Source: Patescibacteria group bacterium (GTDB lineage: Bacteria; Patescibacteriota; Patescibacteriia; Buchananbacterales; UBA6539). From it: DNA of 64,000 nucleotides. Both the position numbers and the translations under genes were made by a program. This document shows, one piece after another, positions 306 to 48,450 of the stretch. Every line of letters starts with the position of its first letter. Position 1 is the stretch's first letter. Below the pieces are notes generated by a model, which was not told where the DNA came from, did not search any database, and worked only from the letters and a program-made list of their open reading frames with translations. Location: assembly GCA_041649675.1 (NCBI GenBank), contig JBAZMQ010000003.1:5335-69334 (forward strand), given 5' to 3'.

Positions 306-436
306 GGCTGTGGCTCAGTTTGCGCCAGAGGCACATCCGCCTTTGGCGGAGGCTACCTACCAAAACGACTGTTATATTTTTTAGAATCGTTCAGTCGGGC
401 CGGGAGTGCCTGCTTTGGCCCGTCCGCCTTGACTGT
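306..436 (+). pseudogene. tRNA-Pro-like fragments interrupted by a palindromic element
   Basis: cgggctgtggctcagtt matches the 5' end of the downstream tRNA-Pro (cggggtatggctcagtt). It then diverges into gccagaggcacatccgcctttggcgg. Later gcctgctttggccc resembles the Pro anticodon arm. No complete cloverleaf can be drawn. Confidence 0.4.
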
Positions 437-6638: not shown

Positions 6639-8699
6639 ATGAATGTTTCCGAATTAGCCAGAAAATTAAAGACTACAAGCAAAGAGCTGCTAGAAATTTT
6701 ACCAGCAGTCGGTTTTGATATTGGCCGGCGCGCAATTAAAATTGATGATCGCCAGGCCCAAAAAATTGTTGAACGTTGGCCGCAACTTTTAGCCGAATAT
6801 AAATTTAAGTTTAAAACTGAAGAAGAAAAAGAAGCCGAAGAAACCGTAGTCAAAAAAGTTGAAGAGAAAAAATCAGTTTCTATTGGCTCAGTCATTCGGG
6901 TTAAAGATTTTGCCGAGAAATTAAAATTGCCTTTATCAAAAGTGATGGCAGAACTAATGAAAAATGGAGTGCTTTCTTCAATGAATGAGGAAATTGATTT
7001 TGATACGGCTGCGATTGTTGGTTTTCAATTGGGCTTTGAAATAATTTCTGATACGACAACTGTAGCAGAAAACGAAAAAACCACTTCGGAAAAATTGGAA
7101 AGTTTATTAGCCGAAGATGATAAAACTAAATTGAAAGAGCGCGCGCCAGTCGTTGTGGTGATGGGGCATGTTGATCATGGTAAAACTAAATTACTGGATG
7201 CAATTAGAAAAACGGATGTGGTCGCGGGCGAAAGCGGCGGCATTACTCAACACATCGGTGCCTACCAAGTGACAGTTCCGCTAAAGGCGGAATTGTCATC
7301 CCGACCAAAGGGAGGGATCCCTCGCGCGGCTCGGGATGATTTTGCCGCCGGCAAAATCACATTTATTGATACGCCCGGCCATGAGGCTTTTACGACTATG
7401 CGGTCGCGTGGCGCTCGAGTAGCTGATATTGCTATTTTGGTGATTGCGGCCGATGACAGTATTCAGCCTCAAACTAAAGAATCAATTAAAATTATTAATT
7501 CTGTCGGTTTGCCGATGATTGTGGCCATTAATAAAATTGATAAGCCTGATGCTAATATTGAAAAAGTTAAACAAGATTTAGCGGCTTTAAATCTAGTGCC
7601 GGAAGAATGGGGCGGCAAAACCATTTGCGTGCCAATTTCAGCTAAAGCCGGTACGGGTATTGATGATTTATTGGAAATGATTTTATTGGTGGCTGAAACC
7701 GAAAAAGAAAACATTATGGCTAATCCCGATAAATTGGCTGTTGGCACAATTATTGAATCAAGGATTAACCGGGATGAAGGTCCGGTGGCAACAGTTTTGG
7801 TTCAGGCTGGAACTTTGCACCTTGGTGATTTGGTAGAAATTTCGGGCAATTTTTATGGCAAAATTAGAGCTATGAAAAATTATCGGGGTCAAGACGTTTC
7901 TAAGGCTACACCATCAATGCCGGTTAAAATTTTGGGTTTAAAAGCGGCTGCTTCGGTTGGTGATATTTTACAAGTTTCTGACGATTTAGGTAAACGAAAA
8001 AAAATAAAGAAATATCAGCTTAATCAGCAAGCGGTAGATTATTCAAAACCGTTGGAAGTTAATAGCGAAACCAATGCTGAAATGGTTTCTTTAAATTTAA
8101 TTTTACGCGCTGACGTTTTGGGTTCGTTGGAAGCAATTATTGCTTCCTTAAATAAACTTAGTAATTCAGAAGTTTCAATTAACCTTATTGTTAAAGGTTT
8201 GGGCAATATTACCGAGGGTGATATTACACGTGCTGAAGCGAGTAATGCTCTAATTTTAGGCTTTCATGTCAAAGCTACGCAAGCAGCGGAAAATATTGCC
8301 AAAGAAAAAAAAGTAGAAATTAAAACTTACGAAGTTATTTATCATTTATTGGATGAAGTAAAATCCCGTTTGGAAAAGTTATTAGTACCTGAAGTTATAA
8401 AAACTGAATTAGGCCGTCTTAAGGTCTTGGCTATTTTCCGCAAGGAGTCTAATTCAATAATTGTTGGCGGTATGGTCACTAAGGGAGTAATTTTACTAAA
8501 TAGTAAAGCTGATGTTTTGCGCGATAAACGAAAGATTGCTACCGGCCATATTACTCAATTACAAGTGAATAAAGTTGCTGTCAATGAAATGCCTCAAGGC
8601 AAAGAAGGTGGTTTAAAATTTGAAGGTAAACCAGTAGTTTTGCCAGGCGATATTTTAGAAGTTTATCAGGAAGAAGTTAAAGCCAAAAAACTTAAATAA
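6639..8699 (+). CDS. infB: translation initiation factor IF-2
   Basis: G-domain motifs GHVDHGKT, DTPGH and NKIDK are present. The C-terminal domains are collinear with IF-2. The 686-aa length is typical of a short-form IF-2. Confidence 0.95.
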   Translation: MNVSELARKLKTTSKELLEILPAVGFDIGRRAIKIDDRQAQKIVERWPQLLAEYKFKFKTEEEKEAEETVVKKVEEKKSVSIGSVIRVKDFAEKLKLPLSKVMAELMKNGVLSSMNEEIDFDTAAIVGFQLGFEIISDTTTVAENEKTTSEKLESLLAEDDKTKLKERAPVVVVMGHVDHGKTKLLDAIRKTDVVAGESGGITQHIGAYQVTVPLKAELSSRPKGGIPRAARDDFAAGKITFIDTPGHEAFTTMRSRGARVADIAILVIAADDSIQPQTKESIKIINSVGLPMIVAINKIDKPDANIEKVKQDLAALNLVPEEWGGKTICVPISAKAGTGIDDLLEMILLVAETEKENIMANPDKLAVGTIIESRINRDEGPVATVLVQAGTLHLGDLVEISGNFYGKIRAMKNYRGQDVSKATPSMPVKILGLKAAASVGDILQVSDDLGKRKKIKKYQLNQQAVDYSKPLEVNSETNAEMVSLNLILRADVLGSLEAIIASLNKLSNSEVSINLIVKGLGNITEGDITRAEASNALILGFHVKATQAAENIAKEKKVEIKTYEVIYHLLDEVKSRLEKLLVPEVIKTELGRLKVLAIFRKESNSIIVGGMVTKGVILLNSKADVLRDKRKIATGHITQLQVNKVAVNEMPQGKEGGLKFEGKPVVLPGDILEVYQEEVKAKKLK
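7272..7352 (+). repeat. GC-rich palindromic insertion in-frame within the infB G domain
   Basis: About 20 extra residues (PLKAELSSRPKGGIPRAARDDFAA) sit between IGAYQV and ITFIDTPGH, where IF-2 proteins normally have 6-8. The DNA carries ccgctaaaggcgg and a tcatcccga...tcgggatga inverted repeat, both seen in intergenic elements in this window. Confidence 0.5.
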
Positions 8700-10280: not shown

Positions 10281-10316
10281 TTTATTTCCTTAATTCCTAA
10301 TTCCTAATTCCTAATT
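10281..10316. repeat. tandem heptamer repeat (cctaatt, about 4 copies) with an upstream inverted aggaat
   Basis: ccttaattcctaattcctaattcctaattct in the clpP upstream region. Confidence 0.6.
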
Positions 10317-10323
10317 CTAAAAT

Positions 10324-10899
10324 ATGTATCTCATCCCAACTGTCATTGAAAAATCTAATTATGGCGAGCGAGCTTATGATATTTATTCTCGCTTGCTTAA
10401 AGAAAGAATTATTTTTTTGGGTTCACCCATTGATGATGCGGTAGCCAACACCGTCATTGCCCAACTTTTGTTTTTAGACAGCGAAGACACCAAAAAGGAT
10501 ATCAAGCTTTATATTAACAGTCCGGGCGGATCAGTCACGGCTGGTTTGGCAATTTATGACACCATGCAATATGTCAAAGCCGACGTGATGACAATTTGTA
10601 TTGGTATGGCTGCTTCCATGGGCGCATTGATTCTGGCTTCCGGTGCCAAGGGTAAAAGAATTGCTTTGCCTAATGCCGAAATCATGCTGCATCAAGTCAT
10701 GGGCGGCGCCGAAGGCCAAGCCACAGATATTAAAATTAGGGCCGAACATATTTTGCGAATCAAAGAACGAATGAATCAGATTTTGGCTTCTCATACCGGT
10801 CAGTCAATTAAAAAAATTGAGCAGGACACTGACCGTGATTATTTTATGAATTCGGATGAAGCCAAAAAATATGGGATTGTTGATAAGATTATCAAGTAA
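10324..10899 (+). CDS. clpP: ATP-dependent Clp protease proteolytic subunit
   Basis: [16 protein letters not shown], catalytic Ser context GMAASMGA, and MLHQ. Length 191 aa. Confidence 0.95.
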
Positions 10900-16688: not shown

Positions 16689-16775
16689 ATTTTTTCTCCT
16701 TAATATTAGTATACCGCAAAAACAAAAAAACCTCTAATGCTAGAGATTTTTTCAATTCAATCCTGAACTAAATTC

Positions 16776-16823
16776 GCACCCGAAAGGATTTGAACCTTTA
16801 ACCCCTTGGTCTCCCGCGCAAAC
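16776..16823 (-). repeat. tRNA-like 3' fragment (T-arm aaagg-ttcaaat-ccttt plus acceptor-like cgggtgcga) abutting the 3' end of tRNA-Arg
   Basis: Reverse complement reads ...ggggttaaaggttcaaatcctttcgggtgcga. No matching 5' half. Confidence 0.45.
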
Positions 16824-16896
16824 CGCGCCCAGTAGGAGTCGAACCTACAACCTTCTGGTCCGAAGCCAGACGCTCTATCCATTGAGCTATAGGCGC
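16824..16896 (-). tRNA. tRNA-Arg (anticodon TCG)
   Basis: Reverse complement: gcgccta-tagctcaatggatagagc-gtctgg-cttcgga-ccagaa-ggttgtagg-ttcgact-cctac-tgggcgc. Anticodon loop ctTCGga. Confidence 0.8.
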
Positions 16897-16957
16897 GGTT
16901 TGTTCGGGATAAACTCTATCCGAGCGGAAAGTTGTTAATATGTATAGTTATTCTTAT

Positions 16958-19224: not shown

Positions 19225-19920
19225 TTACTTATCCCAATTTTTTTTCTTTAGTCCGACAGCAGCCGCTTTAACCTGAGCTTCTTGCTTGCTGGAGCCACTG
19301 GCCGTGGCGATTAATTCTTGGTCCAAATAAACTCCAACCTGGAATTTTTTTGCGTGATCCGGGCCACTTTCTTTTATTACGTTATAAGTTGGAGTAATAC
19401 CCAATTTTTCCTGGGCGATTTCTTGAAATTTACTTTTAGGATCTAAATAAAGTTGATTGGATAGAATATGTGGTAGTTCGGGCAGTAAGAATGTATGAAT
19501 AAATTGTTCAGCGACTTGATAGCCCTGGTCAAGATAAATTGAGCCAATAAGGGCCTCAAAAGCATTGGCTAAAATATAGTTTCTAGCCTTACTGTTTGTG
19601 TCTTTGGCTTCGCCTTTGCTTAAGTAAAGGTATGCCTCCAAATCAATTTTTTTAGCGATTTTTGAAAGCATTTGGCTATTAACCAAACTGGCTCGCCAGT
19701 TGGTTAGTTCGCCTTCTGGATTGGGATAATTTTGGTAGAGGTATTCGGTGACAACCAATTCCAAAACAGCATCACCTAGAAATTCCATTCGTTCATTATG
19801 ATTAATACCAAACCCTGGATTTTCGTTAATATAGGATCGGTGAACAAAAGCTTGCTTGAGCAAGTCGGAATTTTTAAATTTAATTTTTACTCTTTTTTCT
19901 AGTTGGGAAAAATCTTTCAT
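19225..19920 (-). CDS. rnc: ribonuclease III
   Basis: Signature ERMEFLGDAVLELVVTEYLY. C-terminal dsRBD. Length 231 aa. Confidence 0.9.
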   Translation of the reverse strand: MKDFSQLEKRVKIKFKNSDLLKQAFVHRSYINENPGFGINHNERMEFLGDAVLELVVTEYLYQNYPNPEGELTNWRASLVNSQMLSKIAKKIDLEAYLYLSKGEAKDTNSKARNYILANAFEALIGSIYLDQGYQVAEQFIHTFLLPELPHILSNQLYLDPKSKFQEIAQEKLGITPTYNVIKESGPDHAKKFQVGVYLDQELIATASGSSKQEAQVKAAAVGLKKKNWDK

Positions 19921-20012
19921 GTTAGTTAGCTTGTAGCTTGTCCCGACTCTTTAGTCGGGATTCCGAATTTACATCGGGATAGCTTGTAGCTTGTAGGTAA
20001 TGTTGTATTAAA
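19921..20012. repeat. tagcttgtagcttgt direct repeats flanking cccgac hairpins
   Basis: gttagcttgtagcttgt-cccgactctttagtcggga-ttccgaatttacatcggga-tagcttgtagcttgtagg between rnc and nusB. Confidence 0.6.
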
Positions 20013-42822: not shown

Positions 42823-43563
42823 ATGATCAAAGAATCACTACAAAAATACGGTTTATCCAACAAAGAAGCCGATGTTTATTTGGCGCTTTTGGAGCTTGGT
42901 AAGGCTAAAAGTAGAGAAATTGCCACTAAAACTAAACTGCCCCGCTCAACGGTTTATAGTGTGCTGGAATTTTTAGAAAAGAAAGGCCTGGTTTTTTCTT
43001 TTGATCAAGGTAAAATTAAAACCTACGTGGCCCAAGATCCAGTGAGGATTGTTTCGGATATTGCCAGCCAGGCTCAAGCTATTAAAACAATTTTTCCGGA
43101 ATTAAAAGATTTATATCAAGGGGCTAAAACAAAACCGCAAATAAAATATTATCAGGGCGTTTCCGAGTTAAAAGGAATGTATAATGGCATTCTAAAAATA
43201 AAAGACTTAAAAAGTTATGATATTGTGGCAGCTGAAGGTTATTGGCTCAAGTTAGATGAAAAATTTTTACAAGATTTTAAAAAACGAAGGGCAGAGGCCG
43301 GCATAAAAACCCGATTAATATTGGATAATTCTCAAGCTTCTCTTGAGCGTAAAGCCAATGAAGAAAAAACTAACTCAGAGGTAAAAATTATGCCACCGAG
43401 CATGGCTCAATTTAAAATTTCTGCTGGAACTTATATTTTTAAGGATAAAGTAATTTTTATTGCCTATAAAAAAGAATTAATTGCAGTGGAAATAATTTCC
43501 GAAGAGATTTCCTCGTTACTAAAAATGATGTTTGAATTTTGCTGGCAATTTTTAGCCAAGTAG
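42823..43563 (+). CDS. TrmB-family transcriptional regulator
   Basis: N-terminal wHTH LSNKEADVYLALLELGKAKSREIATKTKLPRSTVYSVLEFLEKKGLV. Confidence 0.75.
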   Translation: MIKESLQKYGLSNKEADVYLALLELGKAKSREIATKTKLPRSTVYSVLEFLEKKGLVFSFDQGKIKTYVAQDPVRIVSDIASQAQAIKTIFPELKDLYQGAKTKPQIKYYQGVSELKGMYNGILKIKDLKSYDIVAAEGYWLKLDEKFLQDFKKRRAEAGIKTRLILDNSQASLERKANEEKTNSEVKIMPPSMAQFKISAGTYIFKDKVIFIAYKKELIAVEIISEEISSLLKMMFEFCWQFLAK

Positions 43564-43662
43564 GCTAGAATAAAAAAGACTTTTCAATAAATAGAACCCC
43601 GTCTAAAACTCAAAATTATTTGATTTAAAAGTTTTGAGCGATGTCGGCAAGAGACTTTTATC

Positions 43663-43728
43663 CCGCCATATGCTCCTGTAGCTTCCGCCAAAGGCGGATC
43701 CGCCTTTGGCCCCTCACCATGCCTCTGA
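43663..43728. repeat. left arm of the nested inverted repeats enclosing tRNA-Arg(CCT)
   Basis: Outer IR ccgccatatgctcctg matches caggagcgtatggcgg at 43891-43906. Hairpin gccaaaggcgg-at-ccgcctttggc at 43687-43710. Inner IR cctttggcccctcaccatgcc matches ggcatggtgaggggccaaagg just 3' of the tRNA. Confidence 0.75.
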
Positions 43729-43800
43729 GCCCCTGTAGTTCAAAGGATAGAACAAGAGACTCCTAAGCTCTGGATGGAGGTTCGATTCCTCCCGGGGGCA
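43729..43800 (+). tRNA. tRNA-Arg (anticodon CCT)
   Basis: Acceptor gcccctg/cgggggc, D-arm gttc-aaaggata-gaac, anticodon loop ctCCTaa (4 bp stem plus one mismatch), T-arm ggagg-ttcgatt-cctcc. Confidence 0.7.
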
Positions 43801-43909
43801 TGGTGAGGGGCCAAAGGACATATAATAAGTTTCCCGACGTAAAATCGGGATCCCAATTCCGCTATAGGCAGACATCGGGACAACTCCTACCAGGAGCGTA
43901 TGGCGGGGT

Positions 43910-43948
43910 CTAAGCTCTGGATGGAGGTTAGATTTCCTCCTAAGGGCA
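43910..43948 (+). repeat. partial copy of tRNA-Arg(CCT), anticodon loop through T-arm (ctaagctctggatggaggttagatttcctcc)
   Basis: Near-identical to tRNA positions 33-64, with substitutions in the T-loop and the acceptor 3' strand. 110 nt downstream of the intact gene. Confidence 0.75.
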
Positions 43949-43986
43949 AGTAAACAAATATTAATGATAAACTCGCCATTACCCTT

Positions 43987-44057
43987 GGGCCTATGGTCCA
44001 GTGGTACGACGCCACATTCGCATTGTGGAGACGGCAGTTCGATTCTGCCTAGGTCCA
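43987..44057 (+). tRNA. tRNA-Ala (anticodon CGC)
   Basis: Acceptor gggccta/taggtcc with the G3:U70 Ala identity pair, anticodon stem ccaca/tgtgg with loop ttCGCat, T-arm ggcag-ttcgatt-ctgcc. Confidence 0.7.
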
Positions 44058-44096
44058 GAGGTAATGGCAGGTATAAGAAGTTTTTTATTGATTCAC

Positions 44097-44134
44097 CAAA
44101 AATAACCTTTTTTGTCCAAAAAAGGTTATTTTTG
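44097..44134 (+). terminator. rho-independent terminator (caaaaataacctttttt...aaaaaaggttatttttg)
   Basis: 17-bp inverted repeat, AT-rich, after the tRNA pair. Confidence 0.55.
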
Positions 44135-44439
44135 TATTTATAAAAAATATTTTACGACTCAATTTTTAGTTTAAATTTAGCCAAAATTTTAATTAACATT
44201 TAAATTATATATATTTTTTTGCCAAATTTAAACAAAATTTTAGAGAATTTAAACAAAATATCTAGGTACTAATATTATTCATTATATATTTATCTAATTT
44301 TAGGTAAATTTTTGAGTCGTTAAATATTTATGTTAAAATTATCAACAGCTAAACCCTTGACAATATTCTGATTATATAATAGAATAGAAAGGCTCTTTAT
44401 TGTAATAATCAGGTTTTGCCTCATCAATTTGAGTGTATG

Positions 44440-44690
44440 CCTGTTTTTTTGACCTTACTCTGGGCTGGTTTTTGTTCTGCCTCTCCAGCTCAGTGCGGGG
44501 CGGCTGTCTTCCGCATATTGTAGCACCCACATCTGGTGCTCACATTGGACCTTGCGTCTATTTTTCTGCGGCGGCAGCTCCATTGATCAGGACCCGATCA
44601 AGTCATTTCTCTTGGGCAAGCTGAATAAGCTTGTGGCATTGGAGTGATTTGATTCGGGTCCTTTGTCATATTCTCTTAATTTTGCTTGAT
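44440..44690. other. GC-rich structured non-coding segment inside an AT-rich spacer, candidate small RNA
   Basis: Local hairpins tgcgg...ccgca and agcacc-cacatct-ggtgct. Long-range IR aggacccgatcaa / ttgattcgggtcct. The 63-aa ORF here has no RBS. Confidence 0.3.
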
Positions 44691-44826
44691 TTTATTACTT
44701 TTTTGACAAGCCTTGAAGTTGATTATATAATACATTCATTATTTAAAGTTATTTAGTATTAATATGGGCTCTTAGCCTGTTCATTATAATTTGAAAATTT
44801 AAATATTACCGCATACTAACACCAAT

Positions 44827-44900
44827 GGGCCCTTAGCTCAGTTGGCTAGAGCGCTTCCATGGCATGGAAGAGGCCAAGGGTTCAAATCCCTTAGGGTCCA
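44827..44900 (+). tRNA. tRNA-Ala (anticodon GGC)
   Basis: Acceptor gggccct/agggtcc with G3:U70, D-arm agctcagttggctagagc, anticodon stem cttcc/ggaag with loop atGGCat, T-arm ggg-ttcaaat-ccc. Confidence 0.8.
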
Positions 44901-44968
44901 TTGGCGTTGGTAGGCGGTGAAGGGAGTCACCCGAACGTAATATCGGATTTGGACTCACCAAAATATCT

Positions 44969-45253
44969 ATGAGTTACTATGTTTATTTTTTGAAAAGCAT
45001 AAAGAATAATAAAATCTATACAGGATACACTAAAATAGACCCAATTTTAAGAATTAAACAACACAACCAGGGAACGGATAAATGGACTAAAGAAAATGGT
45101 CCATTTTTGTTGTTATATTATGAAAAATATTGTTGTAAAAAAGATGCTATTTTGAGAGAAAAATTTTATAAAACAGGTATTGGCAGAAGAATTCACAATG
45201 CAATAATTAGCTCAGTTTCCGCCAAAGGCGGACCCGCCTTTGGCGGGGGCTAG
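44969..45253 (+). CDS. GIY-YIG nuclease-domain protein (UPF0213 / YhbQ-like)
   Basis: YVYFLKS..NKIYTGYT....R...HN.G is the GIY-YIG signature. 94 aa. The last 11 codons (SAKGGPAFGGG) read through the ccgccaaaggcgg palindrome. Confidence 0.7.
   Translation: MSYYVYFLKSIKNNKIYTGYTKIDPILRIKQHNQGTDKWTKENGPFLLLYYEKYCCKKDAILREKFYKTGIGRRIHNAIISSVSAKGGPAFGGG
45219..45246. repeat. palindromic hairpin ccgccaaaggcgg-ac-ccgcctttggcgg
   Basis: 13-bp stem with a 2-nt loop. Same family as 43687-43710 and 337-349. Confidence 0.8.
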
Positions 45254-45332
45254 AGCGCTTCCATGGCATGGAAGAGGCCAAGGGTTCTCAGCCAGAGGCT
45301 GATGCGCCTTTGGCGCAAAATTCCTTAGGGTC
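45250..45332 (+). pseudogene. partial tRNA-Ala(GGC) copy (D-stem 3' side through 3' end) with a 30-nt insertion in the T-loop
   Basis: ctagagcgcttccatggcatggaagaggccaagggttc is identical to the intact gene, then tcagccagaggctgatgcgcctttggcgcaaaatt, then ccttagggtcca. The 5' acceptor/D segment is replaced by the palindrome. Confidence 0.75.
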
Positions 45333-45822
45333 CACCAAAAATAATGTTTCACAAGAAACATTATTTTTGTTTTGGCTATATAATTACTCCCCCTGTTTTA
45401 AATTCAGTTACTTGGGGGGGGGGCGGCTTGTAAAACAAAAAAATAGGGTAGAAGTTTTAAGCTTACTACCCCTGTCAACTAATTGTATCATCCATGATCC
45501 GTACGGGACGTTGACGCGCCCTTGAGCCGTAGCTCAACTGTTGTTTTCCTTTTTTACCGCCTTTAGCAAGCAGTGTTGATCAGAAATAGATATTGGGAAA
45601 CGGGGTCCCCGTTGAAGAGAGATAGGCACCGGCTTAACTTATAAAAAGGAGGTTGTGGGAAGTTTTCTGGGGTGAACAACAGCTATTACCGATGGTATTC
45701 TAGACAAGGATCGGGGCATCTGCCCTTGTGCTTACCACTTCCGCAGACCAGAAAACTTTTTGCAGATGCTTACGCTCCTATTTTACCAAAAAAATGAAAA
45801 ATTTAGAATATACAATTAAGTT

Positions 45823-46581
45823 TTAATTTTTTATCCTAGTCTTTGGTGAAAAATCATAGATAAATTTAAACCAGGTGCGATAGCTATTGGCCAGTTTTTC
45901 ATCGCGCAAAATAAATAAAGTAACATCATCATCAACCTTTTTTAATTCCAGCCCGGTAAAAGTAACAACATAGTCGCCAAAAATATCAATGGCTGATTCC
46001 GTACTGTATTGACTGGGGATAAAACGATATTCACCACCCAAAATTTTAACTGCATCTTGGCCTTTTTCTTTAACTATTTCGTCATAAACATGGTAAAAGG
46101 TAATTTTTTTACGCTTAGCTTCTTTGAGAAATTGATCTAAAAAAGTTTTTAAACGCGGATCAAACCAGCCAAGCTTGGCACCGATCATATAAACATCCTG
46201 GCCGGTTCTTAAAATATCACGCAAATAATTTTTAAAACCTTCAAGGCCGCGATAGATGTAAGCTTCCTGGGTGTGCTCGCGACTTTCATAGCGCTTTCTT
46301 AATTCCGGTAAACTCTGATTTAAATTAATTTCTTTTTCTTTAATTAATTCTAAAAGTTTATCCGGATCAACTGGTGAGTATAAATTTTCATTTTTACTGA
46401 CAATTGGAAAAATTAATCCTTTGTCAATTAAACGATTAATTGCGTCATAAACATTACGGCGATGAATTTCAGCTTTGGAAGAAATTTGTCCAACGCCGGC
46501 TTCTTTTAAATCCAAAAGTGCCTCGTAAATTTTTGCTTCATTAGGTGAGAGACCCAATTCTTGTAAAACTTTTATTGACAT
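45823..46581 (-). CDS. TrmB-family transcriptional regulator
   Basis: LGLSPNEAKIYEALLDLKEAGVGQISSKAEIHRRNVYDAINRLIDKGLI. Confidence 0.75.
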   Translation of the reverse strand: MSIKVLQELGLSPNEAKIYEALLDLKEAGVGQISSKAEIHRRNVYDAINRLIDKGLIFPIVSKNENLYSPVDPDKLLELIKEKEINLNQSLPELRKRYESREHTQEAYIYRGLEGFKNYLRDILRTGQDVYMIGAKLGWFDPRLKTFLDQFLKEAKRKKITFYHVYDEIVKEKGQDAVKILGGEYRFIPSQYSTESAIDIFGDYVVTFTGLELKKVDDDVTLFILRDEKLANSYRTWFKFIYDFSPKTRIKN

Positions 46582-47634: not shown

Positions 47635-48450
47635 TTAGATAGTTTTTAAAAAAGAGGCGGTATCTTTAGGATTAACTTTAATTTTTTTACATAGCGGCCA
47701 AACCAATTCAAATTGTGATTTGATCAATTCAGTAAAATCACGACTGGTTACGGTAAAGCCAAAACTCTCTTGGCGCGAAGAAATAAAAGCGACTTTATCG
47801 GCATAGGCCCAAAGACCCATGTTCCAACTCATGCCTTTGGGTGAGAGCCGAATCTCGCGGTGAAATTCTTTACTTACGCCCAAAAAGGGATATTGTTTGA
47901 ATTTGACGGCTTTGTCCGGCGGCCAAATCGTTCGCAAATAAATTTTTTTACGAATCCTTTTTTTATTATGTTCAGCCAGCCAGTCTTTGCCTAAAACTTC
48001 AATCATTTCCGAAATTGGCCAGATGCAAAGTGTCACAATATTTTCATACCATAAAATATCATTAATCGCGCGCCGAATTCCCTCTTGGCCGCTGAAAAAT
48101 TTTATCTTGGGCTCCAAGTAATTTATTTGTTTTGAAAGCGTGGGAATAATTTCATCCAGTTCTTTTTTTTGTTTCTGTAGATTTTCAATTCTATCTTTAA
48201 CTAGGAAGGTTAAGTTTTTAGCATCAGTCACTCGAAATAATTTTTTATTATCCTGCGACTGCTCGCTGACCAAACCCAAGCTAATTAAAATTTTTAAATT
48301 ATCATAAACTGACGGGCGGGGGATATTGAGATTTTCCGCGAGCTGGCGCGCCGATGAAGTTCCGGTTTCGAGCAAACGTAAATAAATGCGGCTGGTGGTG
48401 TCGGACAAGTTTAGATTTTTAAGAATGTCTTTAAACATACTTTTTGTCAT
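47635..48450 (-). CDS. TrmB-family transcriptional regulator
   Basis: RIYLRLLETGTSSARQLAENLNIPRPSVYDNLKILISLGLV. Confidence 0.75.
   Translation of the reverse strand: MTKSMFKDILKNLNLSDTTSRIYLRLLETGTSSARQLAENLNIPRPSVYDNLKILISLGLVSEQSQDNKKLFRVTDAKNLTFLVKDRIENLQKQKKELDEIIPTLSKQINYLEPKIKFFSGQEGIRRAINDILWYENIVTLCIWPISEMIEVLGKDWLAEHNKKRIRKKIYLRTIWPPDKAVKFKQYPFLGVSKEFHREIRLSPKGMSWNMGLWAYADKVAFISSRQESFGFTVTSRDFTELIKSQFELVWPLCKKIKVNPKDTASFLKTI

Follow-up and report, generated by a model that had tools for sequence, protein, structure and literature searches.

The window analysed here, a stretch of 64,000 nucleotides from a Patescibacteria group bacterium whose features lie on the forward strand unless stated otherwise, carries at 43729-43800 an intact tRNA-Arg(CCT) gene (hereafter A), which ARAGORN and Rfam (tRNA, 62.8 bits) both recovered in agreement with the initial annotation and whose CCA end is not encoded. 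Judging from the sequence, A is the sole functional-looking copy at this locus. The perfect inverted repeat said to hug the tRNA was found as well, with 21-nt arms at 43703-43723 and 43797-43817 that are 100% complementary; the 3' arm covers the last 4 nt of tRNA A, while the 5' arm stops 5 nt short of the tRNA start and is an inverted copy of those 4 nt plus 17 nt of 3' flank. A perfect 21-mer inverted repeat within 300 nt occurred once in the window and in 0 of 20 dinucleotide shuffles, and 16-mer inverted-repeat seeds numbered 9 in the window against 0.05 expected. Folding of the region, proposed earlier as a check, returned unusually stable structures both as RNA (43640-43955, -151.4 kcal/mol, z = -7.65) and as ssDNA (43655-43915, z = -7.92). 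The repeats were thus reproduced on exact computational alignment and, together with the tRNA copy described below, lie far beyond what chance could explain.

An outer repeat, ccgccatatgctcctg at 43663-43678 and caggagcgtatggcgg at 43891-43906, encloses tRNA A and its inner repeat. It has the position and the 16-bp length first described; 15 of 16 positions match and the odd one forms a U.G pair in RNA, and a repeat-finding tool lengthened it to 24 nt at 83%. Its two sides can be read as the remains of an older tRNA-Arg, B. On the 5' side, a flank arm (ccgccatat, 43663-43671) that pairs with 43899-43906 is followed by the fragment gctcctgtagct (43672-43683), corresponding to the acceptor 5' strand, nt 8-9 and D-stem, which matches the tRNA-Arg(CCT) of the relative L003 at 10/12 positions and that of L028 at 18/20, flank counted, and whose acceptor strand pairs perfectly with 43891-43897. 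On the 3' side lies caactcctaccaggagcg (43881-43898), corresponding to T-loop, T-stem 3' strand, acceptor 3' strand and discriminator, with 16/18 positions shared with the L003 tRNA; its two differences compensate two in the 5' strand (from L003 to B, C3-G70 becomes T-A and T5-A68 becomes C-G). A 3' flank arm (tatggcgg, 43899-43906), recovered by repeat search and RNA folding, closes this side. Because of the match to the orthologous plain tRNA in L003, the outer repeat is read as the acceptor stem (gctcctg/caggagc) plus short flank of a split predecessor, and these comparisons show B, at the level of sequence, to be a real predecessor gene. What is left of B includes neither the D-stem 3' strand nor any recognisable anticodon arm, and the A and B sequences are markedly different from each other.

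Beyond B, at 43910-43948 and separated from tRNA A by 109 nt, lies the 39-nt degenerate tRNA copy reported in the initial annotation, which repeats nt 35-72 of tRNA A at 34/39 positions with one indel; it runs from the anticodon loop past the T-arm, where it was first thought to end, to the tRNA 3' end. It is A-like and is read as the 3' remnant of the oldest copy at the site, C. Two upstream segments are candidates for its 5' part: ttcaataaatagaac at 43583-43597, a probable though tentative D-arm remnant (12/15 against ttcaaaggatagaac in tRNA A), and caagagact at 43648-43656, probably the 5' anticodon-stem strand (9/9 against tRNA A nt 26-34), which directly precedes B's flank. These 5' remnants are ambiguous, the second because aagagactttt also duplicates the native upstream flank aaaagactttt. 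The claim that the tRNA sits within a nested palindromic structure beside a partial copy of itself is therefore borne out by the sequence, but the accompanying suggestion of a composite palindromic element that captured or embedded the tRNA gets the relation backwards, the outer repeat being the acceptor stem of the split predecessor.

Two GC-rich palindromes complete the locus. The 11-bp-stem hairpin noted upstream of the tRNA is present as a palindrome of two 12-nt arms without loop (43687-43710), which runs 8 nt into the 5' arm of the inner repeat and forms part of a hairpin repeat, tccgccaaaggcgga + tccgcctttggc, that occupies the place of B's D-loop (43684-43710). Within the window this repeat occurs 4 times, where 0 copies were expected, and each copy lies in a tRNA remnant; the double hairpin recurs in more than 120 metagenome stretches at the least, among the matches listed. 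The second palindrome, tcccgacgtaaaatcggga at 43832-43850, belongs to a CCCGA...TCGG family for which the window gave 12 strand-matches where 0.98 were expected. Similar hairpins lie at 155-170 in the spacer of tRNA-Phe, as had been noticed, and at 44930-44946 upstream of an open reading frame (ORF) for a GIY-YIG nuclease. Both hairpins appear from sequence to be copies of generic multi-copy palindromes. The objection that the inverted repeats might be generic elements found around unrelated genes thus holds for these two, which are multi-copy, and for them only; the 21-nt repeat is borne by the cassette and is the only repeat specific to the cassette carrying the live tRNA. Since the outer repeat derives from B, the inner one from the cassette and the hairpins from generic families, the nested inverted repeats are not one designed element but have separate origins.

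Comparison with orthologous tRNA-Arg loci, suggested from the beginning, showed the same site in other states. In L003 the corresponding position behind the orthologous TrmB gene, which in the window holds the nested arrangement, is taken by a plain tRNA-Arg(CCT) free of flanking repeats; L002 has an A-type tRNA (28/32 positions identical to tRNA A) behind a B-like flank, and L028 a B-type tRNA. Flanks homologous to B's 5' flank precede the tRNA in both L002 and L028 (cccgcactat and cgtcctat, respectively), and A-type and B-type tRNA-Arg alternate among these close relatives. The neighbouring tRNA-Ala(GGC) site is empty in L004 and L005 and occupied in L003 and in the window, so that occupied and empty alleles of the same site exist among related genomes. 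The plain B-type gene of L003 could be either the ancestral state or a cleaned-up derivative. In four more distant TrmB-linked loci (L007, L009, L012 and L027) synteny is lost and no tRNA was found at that place.

Similar arrangements recur along the window, where 6 of 9 tRNAs adjoin partial copies of themselves and 2 of these 6 have a stand-alone GIY-YIG (UPF0213) nuclease gene alongside. Three lie within 15-1052: tRNA-Phe (15-89), followed by an old 3' part at 171-230 with a T-loop hairpin; a repeat-flanked tRNA-Pro (526-602), with a pseudo-tRNA-Pro 5' half at 303-418 and an old 3' end at about 622-642; and tRNA-Gly (683-757), with a frameshifted GIY-YIG pseudogene at 772-980 and a collapsed tRNA-Gly remnant at 1036-1052. 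On the reverse strand, the tRNA-Arg(TCG) locus (16775-16957) comprises a tRNA at 16823-16897, a flanking helix and a diverged old 3' half at 16775-16811 (26/37 positions, score 15 against a maximum of 12 in 500 shuffles), and its flanks are homologous to L098. Downstream of tRNA-Arg(CCT), tRNA-Ala(CGC) at 43986-44058 has its own leader-trailer helix (43968-44075), and its L003 ortholog lies between two halves of an old tRNA-Ala(CGC). The most complete arrangement is the Ala(GGC) sister locus (44766-45337), delimited by repeat, Pfam and copy comparisons: an old tRNA-Ala(GGC) 5' fragment (44766-44777), an intact tRNA-Ala(GGC) (44827-44900) between repeat arms at 44809-44826 and 44900-44917, a hairpin (44930-44946), a GIY-YIG ORF (44969-45253; Pfam GIY-YIG, 4.6e-14), and nt 8-76 plus CCA of the old tRNA (45207-45337), with hairpin inserts in its D-loop (45218-45247) and T-loop (45288-45317). 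New and old Ala(GGC) copies have lineage-specific substitutions in common, as would be expected from local duplication or gene conversion no less than from import. The GC-rich block upstream of this tRNA (44390-44660), aligned with L003 and L004, was discarded as a conserved ncRNA, its column identity being only 58%.

Outside the window, the combination of intact tRNA and fragment was seen in unrelated Patescibacteria contigs (L014, L018, L039, L061, L098, L103, L105 and L110), and a 47-nt insert is common to the pseudo-tRNA-Pro of the window, L003 and L103. Sequence comparison thus suggests that nested disruption recurs at most tRNA genes of the window and in many other Patescibacteria, often beside a small GIY-YIG gene. 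The repeat arms differ in sequence between cassettes and so do not reveal any transposase-type terminus common to them; the 5' arms in L103 repeat, in inverted orientation, the tRNA 3' end, its native 3' flank or both, as the focal 5' arm does. The motif pair CCCCTCAC/GTGAGGGG is common to the focal repeat and to the repeat around the L103 GIY-YIG ORF; it was rejected as a shared terminal repeat, with only 2 tRNA-linked cases in 0.9 Mb, and may be a coincidence.

The nuclease gene is closely tied to tRNA genes. Of the relatives of the GIY-YIG protein identified in reference genomes, 14 of 14 have a same-strand tRNA no more than about 400 nt away, and in at least 7 of them exact duplicates of the tRNA 5' part (12-36 nt) stand just upstream of the ORF; the order of tRNA 5' fragment with hairpin, GIY-YIG gene and intact tRNA was found in most of about 20 loci inspected, the hairpin regularly placed between the 5' fragment and the ORF. 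The encoded proteins consist of the catalytic domain only (79-94 aa) without a DNA-binding domain; their best PDB matches are the UPF0213 proteins 1zg2 and 1ywl, and the candidate catalytic residues, by our own assignment Y6, Y17, G19, R28, H32 and E64, are invariant in 12 homologs. The protein family search returned no match in PHROGs or NCBIfam, and an exact look-up of the 94-aa ORF retrieved no sequence on record. The gene at 44969-45253 is intact, in contrast to the frameshifted copy at 772-980. The focal cassette (43684-43880) contains no ORF and lies 1.2 kb from the nearest intact GIY-YIG gene.

Taken together, we consider it reasonably probable that a cassette bringing a complete tRNA of identical specificity broke up the tRNA-Arg(CCT) gene and took over its function, on at least one occasion and probably on two. 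The layers would be ordered C[ B[ A ] ], the direction of events being inferred: B, bringing its own short flank arms, would have split C in the anticodon loop, and B would later have been split between D-arm and T-arm by the GC-rich hairpin repeat and a cassette made of a 21-nt arm, tRNA A, a second 21-nt arm and the spacer hairpin. The breaks could come from the stand-alone GIY-YIG (UPF0213) nuclease of sister elements (e.g., the gene at 44969-45253), acting on loop-coding DNA, with candidate cut positions in the D-loop after GCTCAGTT, at anticodon positions 35/36 or 37/38 and in the T-loop after GGTTC; that the nuclease causes the insertions is deduced from its position beside tRNA genes and their fragments. 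Repair would then copy in the element with its own replacement tRNA or tRNA part, and since the element brings this replacement, the host would tolerate the insertion without splicing. The displaced fragments would remain as flanks, decay and be colonised by hairpin repeats, and the ORF-less focal cassette may be a deletion derivative or a passenger mobilised in trans. A working copy accompanied by the native part as a dead flank is what is seen at the locus, with B and C beside A, and at the GIY-YIG ORFs, which are bracketed by duplicates of tRNA 5' parts.

A broader reading, which we advance only as a tentative proposal, is that a lineage-wide class of selfish elements in Patescibacteria settles in tRNA genes. 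With the help of GC-rich hairpin modules, a minimal and structure-directed GIY-YIG (UPF0213) nuclease would break loop-coding DNA and install cassettes bounded by inverted repeats and carrying a working replacement tRNA; next to self-splicing introns and inteins, this would be a third means by which a homing-type element does no harm in an essential gene. Repeated rounds would produce Russian-doll genes and a rapid turnover of tRNA alleles. The inverted repeats would have their role in the DNA, either signalling as cruciforms or hairpins or marking where fold-back repair took place, and would not be RNA processing signals. Were this so, it could account for the fast turnover of tRNA sequences between close relatives.

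The same structures might also have arisen without any mobile element, through local replication errors such as template switching, quasi-palindrome extension and slippage starting from tRNA stems, the GIY-YIG genes merely being located near tRNAs. The 5' arms, as inverted copies of the tRNA 3' end and flank, carry the signature of fold-back or template-switch synthesis, the arms are unique to each tRNA, and the lineage-specific bases shared by new and old Ala(GGC) copies point the same way. However, the A and B tRNA-Arg sequences differ more than one would expect after local duplication, the same insertion types occur at many tRNAs in many genomes, including the 47-nt insert found in three places, and the constant association of GIY-YIG relatives with tRNAs (14/14), with exact bracketing of at least 7 ORFs by duplicated tRNA 5' parts, is difficult to account for unless an element inserted. 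We regard an origin by local errors alone as unlikely.

How the live tRNA is expressed bears on another account of the repeats. A promoter-like site found by consensus scan, CTGGCA-18-TAGAAT (43542-43571), overlaps the end of the TrmB-family gene and is presumed to be the resident promoter of a tRNA-Arg/tRNA-Ala(CGC) transcription unit; the same sequence also precedes the tRNA in L002, L003 and L028, and a terminator-like hairpin with 17 pairs and a T run (44097-44134) ends the unit. Transcription of tRNA A would thus start at 43542-43571, yield a long precursor that includes the presumably co-transcribed tRNA-Ala(CGC), and stop at 44097-44134; the leader-trailer helix would need to be opened or cut, possibly by RNase III, before RNase P, 3' trimming and CCA addition complete the tRNA. 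This helix is a perfect 21 bp at the focal tRNA, with an energy of -38.6 kcal/mol (z = -7.6) against -4.8 kcal/mol in the plain L003 ortholog, and measures 14-25 bp at other nested tRNAs. In rRNA operons a long leader-trailer helix surrounds a structured RNA within a polycistronic precursor and is processed by RNase III; the focal helix is alike in enclosing a tRNA in a presumed polycistronic precursor, and the rnc gene said to be in the window was located at 19225-19920 on the reverse strand.

It may be asked whether the inverted repeats are primarily an RNA processing stalk cut by RNase III, with the tRNA fragments incidental. Helices of this length, coaxial with the acceptor stem in Ala(GGC), Ala(CGC), Pro and B, within a longer transcript from which the tRNA must be released, and with rnc present in the window, would suit such a function, and homologous stalks persist between the window and L003 for both Ala tRNAs and between the window and L098 for Arg(TCG). 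Mismatches of the G.U type outnumber those of the A.C type by 19 to 8, or about 13 to 7 after removal of acceptor-stem G.U pairs and off-helix columns, but this excess is not significant. Strong helices occur only at nested tRNAs and, unlike the rRNA stalk, are not conserved in orthologs: they are absent from those of close relatives (L003 Arg and L004 Ala), so that the stalk is not needed for tRNA maturation in the clade. In the predicted folds of the focal tRNA and of L103 Val, moreover, the 5' arm pairs with the tRNA 3' end and displaces the acceptor stem, with which the focal helix competes, and an RNase III cut there would endanger the 3' end. As the tRNA fragments are also left unexplained, we find it improbable that processing is the primary role of the repeats; an RNase III role for the stems is possible. 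How an organism equipped with a minimal RNA-processing toolkit matures a tRNA enclosed by a 21-bp leader-trailer helix is a testable question.

Integration into a tRNA gene classically leaves behind a direct repeat of the 3' part of the tRNA, and the copy at 43910-43948, from anticodon loop to 3' end, could be taken for the att-site duplication left by a mostly deleted tyrosine-integrase element in the tRNA 3' half. This we judge very unlikely and reject, since no integrase was seen among the neighbouring ORFs and the duplications at sister loci have the wrong polarity, mostly repeating the tRNA 5' part upstream of the ORF, opposite to integrase footprints; moreover, only 109 nt separate tRNA and copy, with no kilobase-scale cargo, and fragment B, the nested inverted repeats and the hairpins would be left unexplained.

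An intron-like insert, in which case the outer tRNA halves would be joined again in the transcript and a single gene would give two tRNAs, has a precedent in the group I introns found in anticodon loops of Patescibacteria tRNAs, including position 35/36 (PMC13011429), the same position at which several hairpin inserts occur in tRNA-Ser remnants, and the closing helix around the insert resembles intron architecture. This explanation, which we hold to be extremely unlikely, was rejected: an Rfam search of 43400-45900 at E <= 1 returned only three tRNAs and chance miRNA-like hairpins, with no intron family, excision of hairpins restored an ARAGORN-detectable tRNA at 0 of 77 sites (offsets of ±4 nt allowed), B lacks parts that a rejoined tRNA would need, and the outer copies are truncated and hold several inserts. 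An assembly artefact joining reads of different tRNA-Arg alleles from a mixed population is barely credible: short-read contigs of relatives or of the same sample do break inside the repeats (L001, L002, L028, L152), among them Logan contig L001, which agrees up to 43774, the start of the repeat, but a second assembly record (ENA ERZ27247363 k141_2195017, L151) reproduces 43540-44140 exactly in a 98.8-kb contig, which makes an error at this locus unlikely, and the same architecture stands in dozens of independent contigs from other samples. Nested tRNA loci thus visibly break short-read assemblies, and with dead fragments and odd flanks at most tRNA loci of the window they may also mislead gene finders.

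Replacement of a gene by a cassette, the explanation we favour, has partial counterparts in known systems. By analogy, the closest match for compensation by replacement instead of splicing is given by the mORFs of fungal mitochondria, which insert into an essential gene and supply the displaced part, leaving the native part downstream as a dead duplicate; they carry replacement gene ends in Allomyces atp6 and in Glomus atp6, atp9, cox2 and nad3, and the atp9 mORF encodes a GIY-YIG enzyme (PMC3630166). Their targets, however, are organelle protein-coding genes, whereas the elements here target bacterial tRNA genes, supply either an entire tRNA or its 5' part, have entered one site serially and in nested fashion, have replacements bracketed by inverted repeats and in many copies have lost the ORF. 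If our reading is true, a selfish element carries a spare copy of the essential gene that it destroys, a strategy documented so far mainly for fungal mitochondrial protein genes that would then act on tRNA genes across a major and poorly understood bacterial phylum.

Among homing enzymes, SegB of phages T4 and T6 is a free-standing GIY-YIG endonuclease encoded in tRNA gene clusters, which cuts within the tRNA gene region and drives its preferential inheritance, can drive segmental amplification of a tRNA gene, and has homologs significantly co-localised with tRNAs (PMC2330249; PMC13096335). A GIY-YIG nuclease gene among tRNA genes is thus common to both systems. SegB, with a length of about 220 aa, is longer and belongs to phages, while the proteins found here are stand-alone UPF0213 domains of 80-95 aa in a cellular genome, and as catalytic domains only they showed no relation to characterised Seg or I-TevI-type enzymes with a DNA-binding domain; split nested targets, repeat-flanked replacement tRNAs and hairpin inserts are not described for SegB loci. 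Structures of stand-alone UPF0213 GIY-YIG proteins have been solved, but we know of no established role and no cleavage specificity for them, and the present observations offer a testable function.

CPR rRNA-gene insertions and tRNA group I introns, known from the same phylum as the focal locus, break into structured-RNA genes at stem-loop tips or bases; some of the rRNA insertions encode GIY-YIG proteins and are not introns, and many short insertions have no ORF (PMC11270868; PMC13011429). Those sequences are removed from the RNA or tolerated in it; here the gene is abandoned and a spare supplied. A term search of these two papers found no mention of GIY-YIG genes with tRNA genes, of tRNA gene fragments or duplication, or of inverted repeats, and the open-access literature on GIY-YIG, tRNA and Patescibacteria, on nested or disrupted tRNA genes and on UPF0213/YhbQ yielded no description of the nested-tRNA/GIY-YIG architecture.

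The palindromic elements of Rickettsia insert into RNA genes and, in frame, into coding genes. The hairpins described here behave likewise, entering RNA genes and, in frame, an infB-like ORF (7273-7349), and both types, TCCGCC-N3-GGCGGA and CCCGA...TCGG, are short, GC-rich, multi-copy palindromes, as are REP and MITE-type repeats (reviewed in PMC3733652 and PMC3184786). They belong to another sequence family, however, and are set between the tRNA 5' fragment and the GIY-YIG ORF, with an enrichment of about 6-fold within 100 nt of tRNAs. Since 77 of 86 hairpin-repeat copies lie away from tRNAs, they are not specific to the process that disrupts tRNA genes. The flanks of these repeats commonly read ttt|hairpin|aaa, and one site carries direct repeats that are themselves tandem.

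The tRNA-Arg(CCT) gene at 43729-43800 (ARAGORN; Rfam 62.8 bits; hereafter A) lies within two inverted repeats and is followed by a partial copy of itself, largely as the initial annotation had described. The perfect 21-nt repeat hugging the gene was recovered at 43703-43723 / 43797-43817, the 11-bp-stem hairpin reported upstream falls within a palindrome of two 12-nt arms (43687-43710), and the hairpin of the spacer occupies 43832-43850 (tcccgacgtaaaatcggga). The outer repeat, described as 16 bp, was found at 43663-43678 / 43891-43906 with 15/16 pairs, the odd one being U.G, and the 39-nt degenerate copy (43910-43948, 34/39) indeed starts in the anticodon loop, although it extends past the T-arm to the 3' end. 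Chance is no explanation for these repeats or for the strength of their fold: of perfect 21-mer inverted repeats within 300 nt, the window has one and 20 dinucleotide shuffles have none, and folding gave z = -7.65 as RNA (43640-43955) and z = -7.92 as DNA (focal region).

The origin of the outer repeat was traced by comparison with orthologous loci. A syntenic contig from a relative (L003; TrmB protein identity 78%) carries, directly after its TrmB gene, a plain tRNA-Arg(CCT) gene that encodes its CCA and lacks flanking repeats; it matches the window at 43672-43683 (gctcctgtagct, 10/12) and 43881-43898 (caactcctaccaggagcg, 16/18). In the acceptor stem the two sequences differ by two compensatory changes, C3-G70 to T-A and T5-A68 to C-G. 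From these matches and changes, the outer repeat is identified as the acceptor stem of a dead, split predecessor similar to the L003 gene (B), together with B's short flank arms (ccgccatat / tatggcgg). Flanks resembling the 5' flank of B also precede the tRNA in two short-read contigs, A-type in L002 (28/32 to A) and B-type in L028, indicating that two tRNA-Arg(CCT) alleles alternate at the focal site among close relatives. The downstream piece at 43910-43948 is A-like, begins immediately 3' of B's 3' flank and is a remnant older than B. Candidate 5' remnants of this oldest copy (C) are a D-arm-like 15-mer (43583-43597, 12/15) and caagagact (43648-43656, 9/9), the latter adjoining B's 5' flank and being of ambiguous assignment, since aagagactttt is at the same time a repeat of the native upstream flank. 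We read the nesting as C[ B[ A ] ]; B is secure, and C is secure at its 3' part but tentative at its 5' part.

The inverted repeats have also been viewed as an RNA processing stalk, and with rnc present in the window, which we confirmed, RNase III may cleave the 21-nt helix. Leader and trailer of the focal tRNA pair at -38.6 kcal/mol vs. -4.8 for the plain L003 ortholog, and strong pairing was seen in nested tRNAs only, with further cases in the compared contigs L098 and L103. In the predicted precursor fold, however, the helix takes up the 3' acceptor strand of the tRNA, which would be awkward for a purpose-built stalk. The arms point to an origin at the DNA level by inverted duplication, since at the focal tRNA the 5' arm reads, in reverse complement, as the last 4 nt of the tRNA and 17 nt of its 3' flank, the tRNA-Val arm in L103 is an inverted copy of the tRNA 3' end, and the tRNA-Ile arm of the same contig is an inverted copy of the native 3' flank, which also follows the old tRNA-Ile copy; such arms would be perfect when young and decay later. 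Among mismatches in the stalks, G.U outnumbers A.C by 19 to 8 in the raw count and by about 13 to 7 once acceptor-stem G.U pairs and off-helix columns are taken out, an excess without statistical significance. A processing stalk as the primary cause of the repeats seems to us unlikely.

Predecessor fragments lie at tRNA loci, and the nested architecture recurs across tRNAs and genomes. Searching the neighbourhood of each tRNA with BLAST revealed partial copies beside Phe, Pro, Gly, Arg(CCT) and Ala(GGC), and Arg(TCG) has a more diverged adjoining one (26/37; score 15, where 500 shuffles reached at most 12), so that six of the window's nine tRNAs have one; at Ala(CGC) only a flanking helix is present, and its L003 ortholog is located between two halves of an old tRNA-Ala(CGC). 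Most can be learned from the Ala(GGC) locus, where an old 5' fragment (44766-44777) is followed by the intact tRNA between repeat arms, a hairpin, a GIY-YIG ORF (44969-45253) and nucleotides 8-76 of the old tRNA plus CCA, with 30-nt hairpins inserted in its D-loop and T-loop. At the corresponding site tRNA-Ala(GGC) is uninterrupted in two compared contigs (L004, L005), and the same tRNA sites occur as empty and occupied alleles. A second GIY-YIG gene, a frameshifted pseudogene directly after tRNA-Gly (772-980), lies between the arms of a 21-nt inverted repeat (90%; 755-775 / 1014-1034), and 3' of it gcgggttacccgctcca (1036-1052) is a collapsed tRNA-Gly with only the acceptor stem left. The L103 GIY-YIG ORF is similarly bracketed by an 18-nt inverted repeat (17/18), with a 7-nt duplication of tRNA-Val sequence.

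The ORF at 44969-45253 is a stand-alone GIY-YIG domain of UPF0213 type (Pfam 4.6e-14; PDB 1zg2, 1ywl), whose candidate catalytic residues, as we assign them, are invariant in 12 homologs. Its 14 relatives from species-representative genomes, mostly CPR (including Moraniibacteriota, Parcubacteria, Berkelbacteria, Microgenomates and Saccharibacteria), are tightly linked to tRNA duplications. All have a same-strand tRNA within about 400 nt, which in nine starts 20-35 nt 3' of the ORF, and at least seven of the 14 repeat the initial 12-36 nt of the tRNA exactly just 5' of the ORF; the recurring order is a tRNA 5' fragment with a GC-rich hairpin in loop position, GIY-YIG and the intact tRNA. The mechanism we favour, with moderate confidence, is that selfish cassettes serially disrupt and replace tRNA genes. 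The GIY-YIG enzyme would make a break in the tRNA gene and repair would then install the cassette, the ORF-less focal one would be a derivative or have been mobilised in trans, and the resident promoter would drive the live tRNA A. The nearest known systems are, in logic, the fungal mitochondrial mORFs, which carry a substitute for a gene end while the native end persists as a dead copy (PMC3630166), and, in gene neighbourhood, phage SegB, a GIY-YIG enzyme encoded among clustered tRNA genes and able to amplify such genes (PMC2330249, PMC13096335). Nothing closer to the nested architecture was found in open-access text, nor is it mentioned in recent CPR papers on rRNA insertions (PMC11270868) and tRNA group I introns (PMC13011429). 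Local template-switch duplication without a mobile element is a doubtful explanation, and an integrase footprint a very improbable one.

The 11-bp hairpin belongs to a double-hairpin repeat (TCCGCC-N3-GGCGGA, then a similar unit) with four copies in the window, all in tRNA remnants, and at least 120 metagenome stretches in a metagenome scan. It stands within 100 nt of an intact tRNA at nine of 86 sites (80 loci), vs. about 1.6% expected as a rough estimate from tRNA density, and the majority of sites are away from tRNAs. The CCCGA...TCGG hairpin forms a second family (12 strand-matches vs. 0.98 expected). Both are generic repeats. Excision of the double hairpin in silico restored a tRNA at none of 77 sites, and an intron is a very improbable reading. 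In four tRNA-Ser remnants (L020:2427-2465; L018:2405-2440; L061; L098) the double hairpin sits between anticodon positions 35 and 36, the same unusual site at which group I introns were recently reported in Patescibacteria tRNA-Asn and tRNA-Asp (PMC13011429). Another double hairpin (19942-19978; tcccgac-tcttta-gtcggga / ttccga-atttaca-tcggga) lies just upstream of rnc, with tagcttgtagcttg on both flanks. A related GC-rich palindromic block of about 75 nt (7273-7349), made of ttccgctaaaggcggaa and a 22/22-nt imperfect palindrome, is in frame in an infB-like ORF (6639-8699), within the G domain of the IF-2-like protein (...GGITQHIGAYQVTV [ PLKAELSSRPKGGIPRAARDDFAAG ] KITFIDTPGHEAF); a hairpin repeat translated inside an essential gene recalls the Rickettsia palindromic elements. 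A third recurrent insertion module is a 47-nt insert (…aacgactg…ttcagtcgggc…) with complementary segments in unusual A-B-A'-B' order, found at the same D-arm position, after GG(C/T)TA and before the D-stem 3' strand, in dead Pro, Ala and Ile tRNAs, one per genome (window 356-402; L003:8447-8493; L103 old tRNA-Ile, reverse strand, about 10290-10340).

A promoter-like site kept in relatives (CTGGCA-18-TAGAAT, 43542-43571) overlaps the end of the TrmB-family gene upstream of tRNA-Arg(CCT), and the next strong predicted terminator is at 44097-44134, from which tRNA-Arg(CCT) and tRNA-Ala(CGC) (43986-44058) probably form a single transcription unit. That TrmB-family protein has its best match in a protein from a Patescibacteria (CPR) MAG, and three such regulator paralogues surround the tRNA cluster within 6 kb (42823-43563 and, on the reverse strand, 45823-46581 and 47635-48450). 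Some 270 nt of GC-rich DNA just 5' of the tRNA-Ala(GGC) promoter (window 44357-44660; L003:8000-8330; L004:8095-8350; column identity only about 58% in the three genomes) carry their own near-perfect promoter, TTGACA-17-TAGAAT; this stretch yielded no Rfam match and no convincing ORF, and may be an ncRNA or fast-evolving element debris. The interval separating the old tRNA-Ala(GGC) from the next TrmB gene contains a further GC-rich, ORF-poor block (45380-45760).

An assembly artefact is the least probable reading of all, as 43540-44140 is present exactly in a second assembly record, a 98.8-kb ENA contig (L151). The poly-G tract at 45417-45426 has 10 G in the window vs. 8 G in that contig. Four Logan contigs of the source organism and of relatives (L001, L002, L028, L152) end inside tRNA/hairpin repeats (43774, tRNA-Arg 5' half, 45288); these elements systematically fragment short-read assemblies of such genomes.
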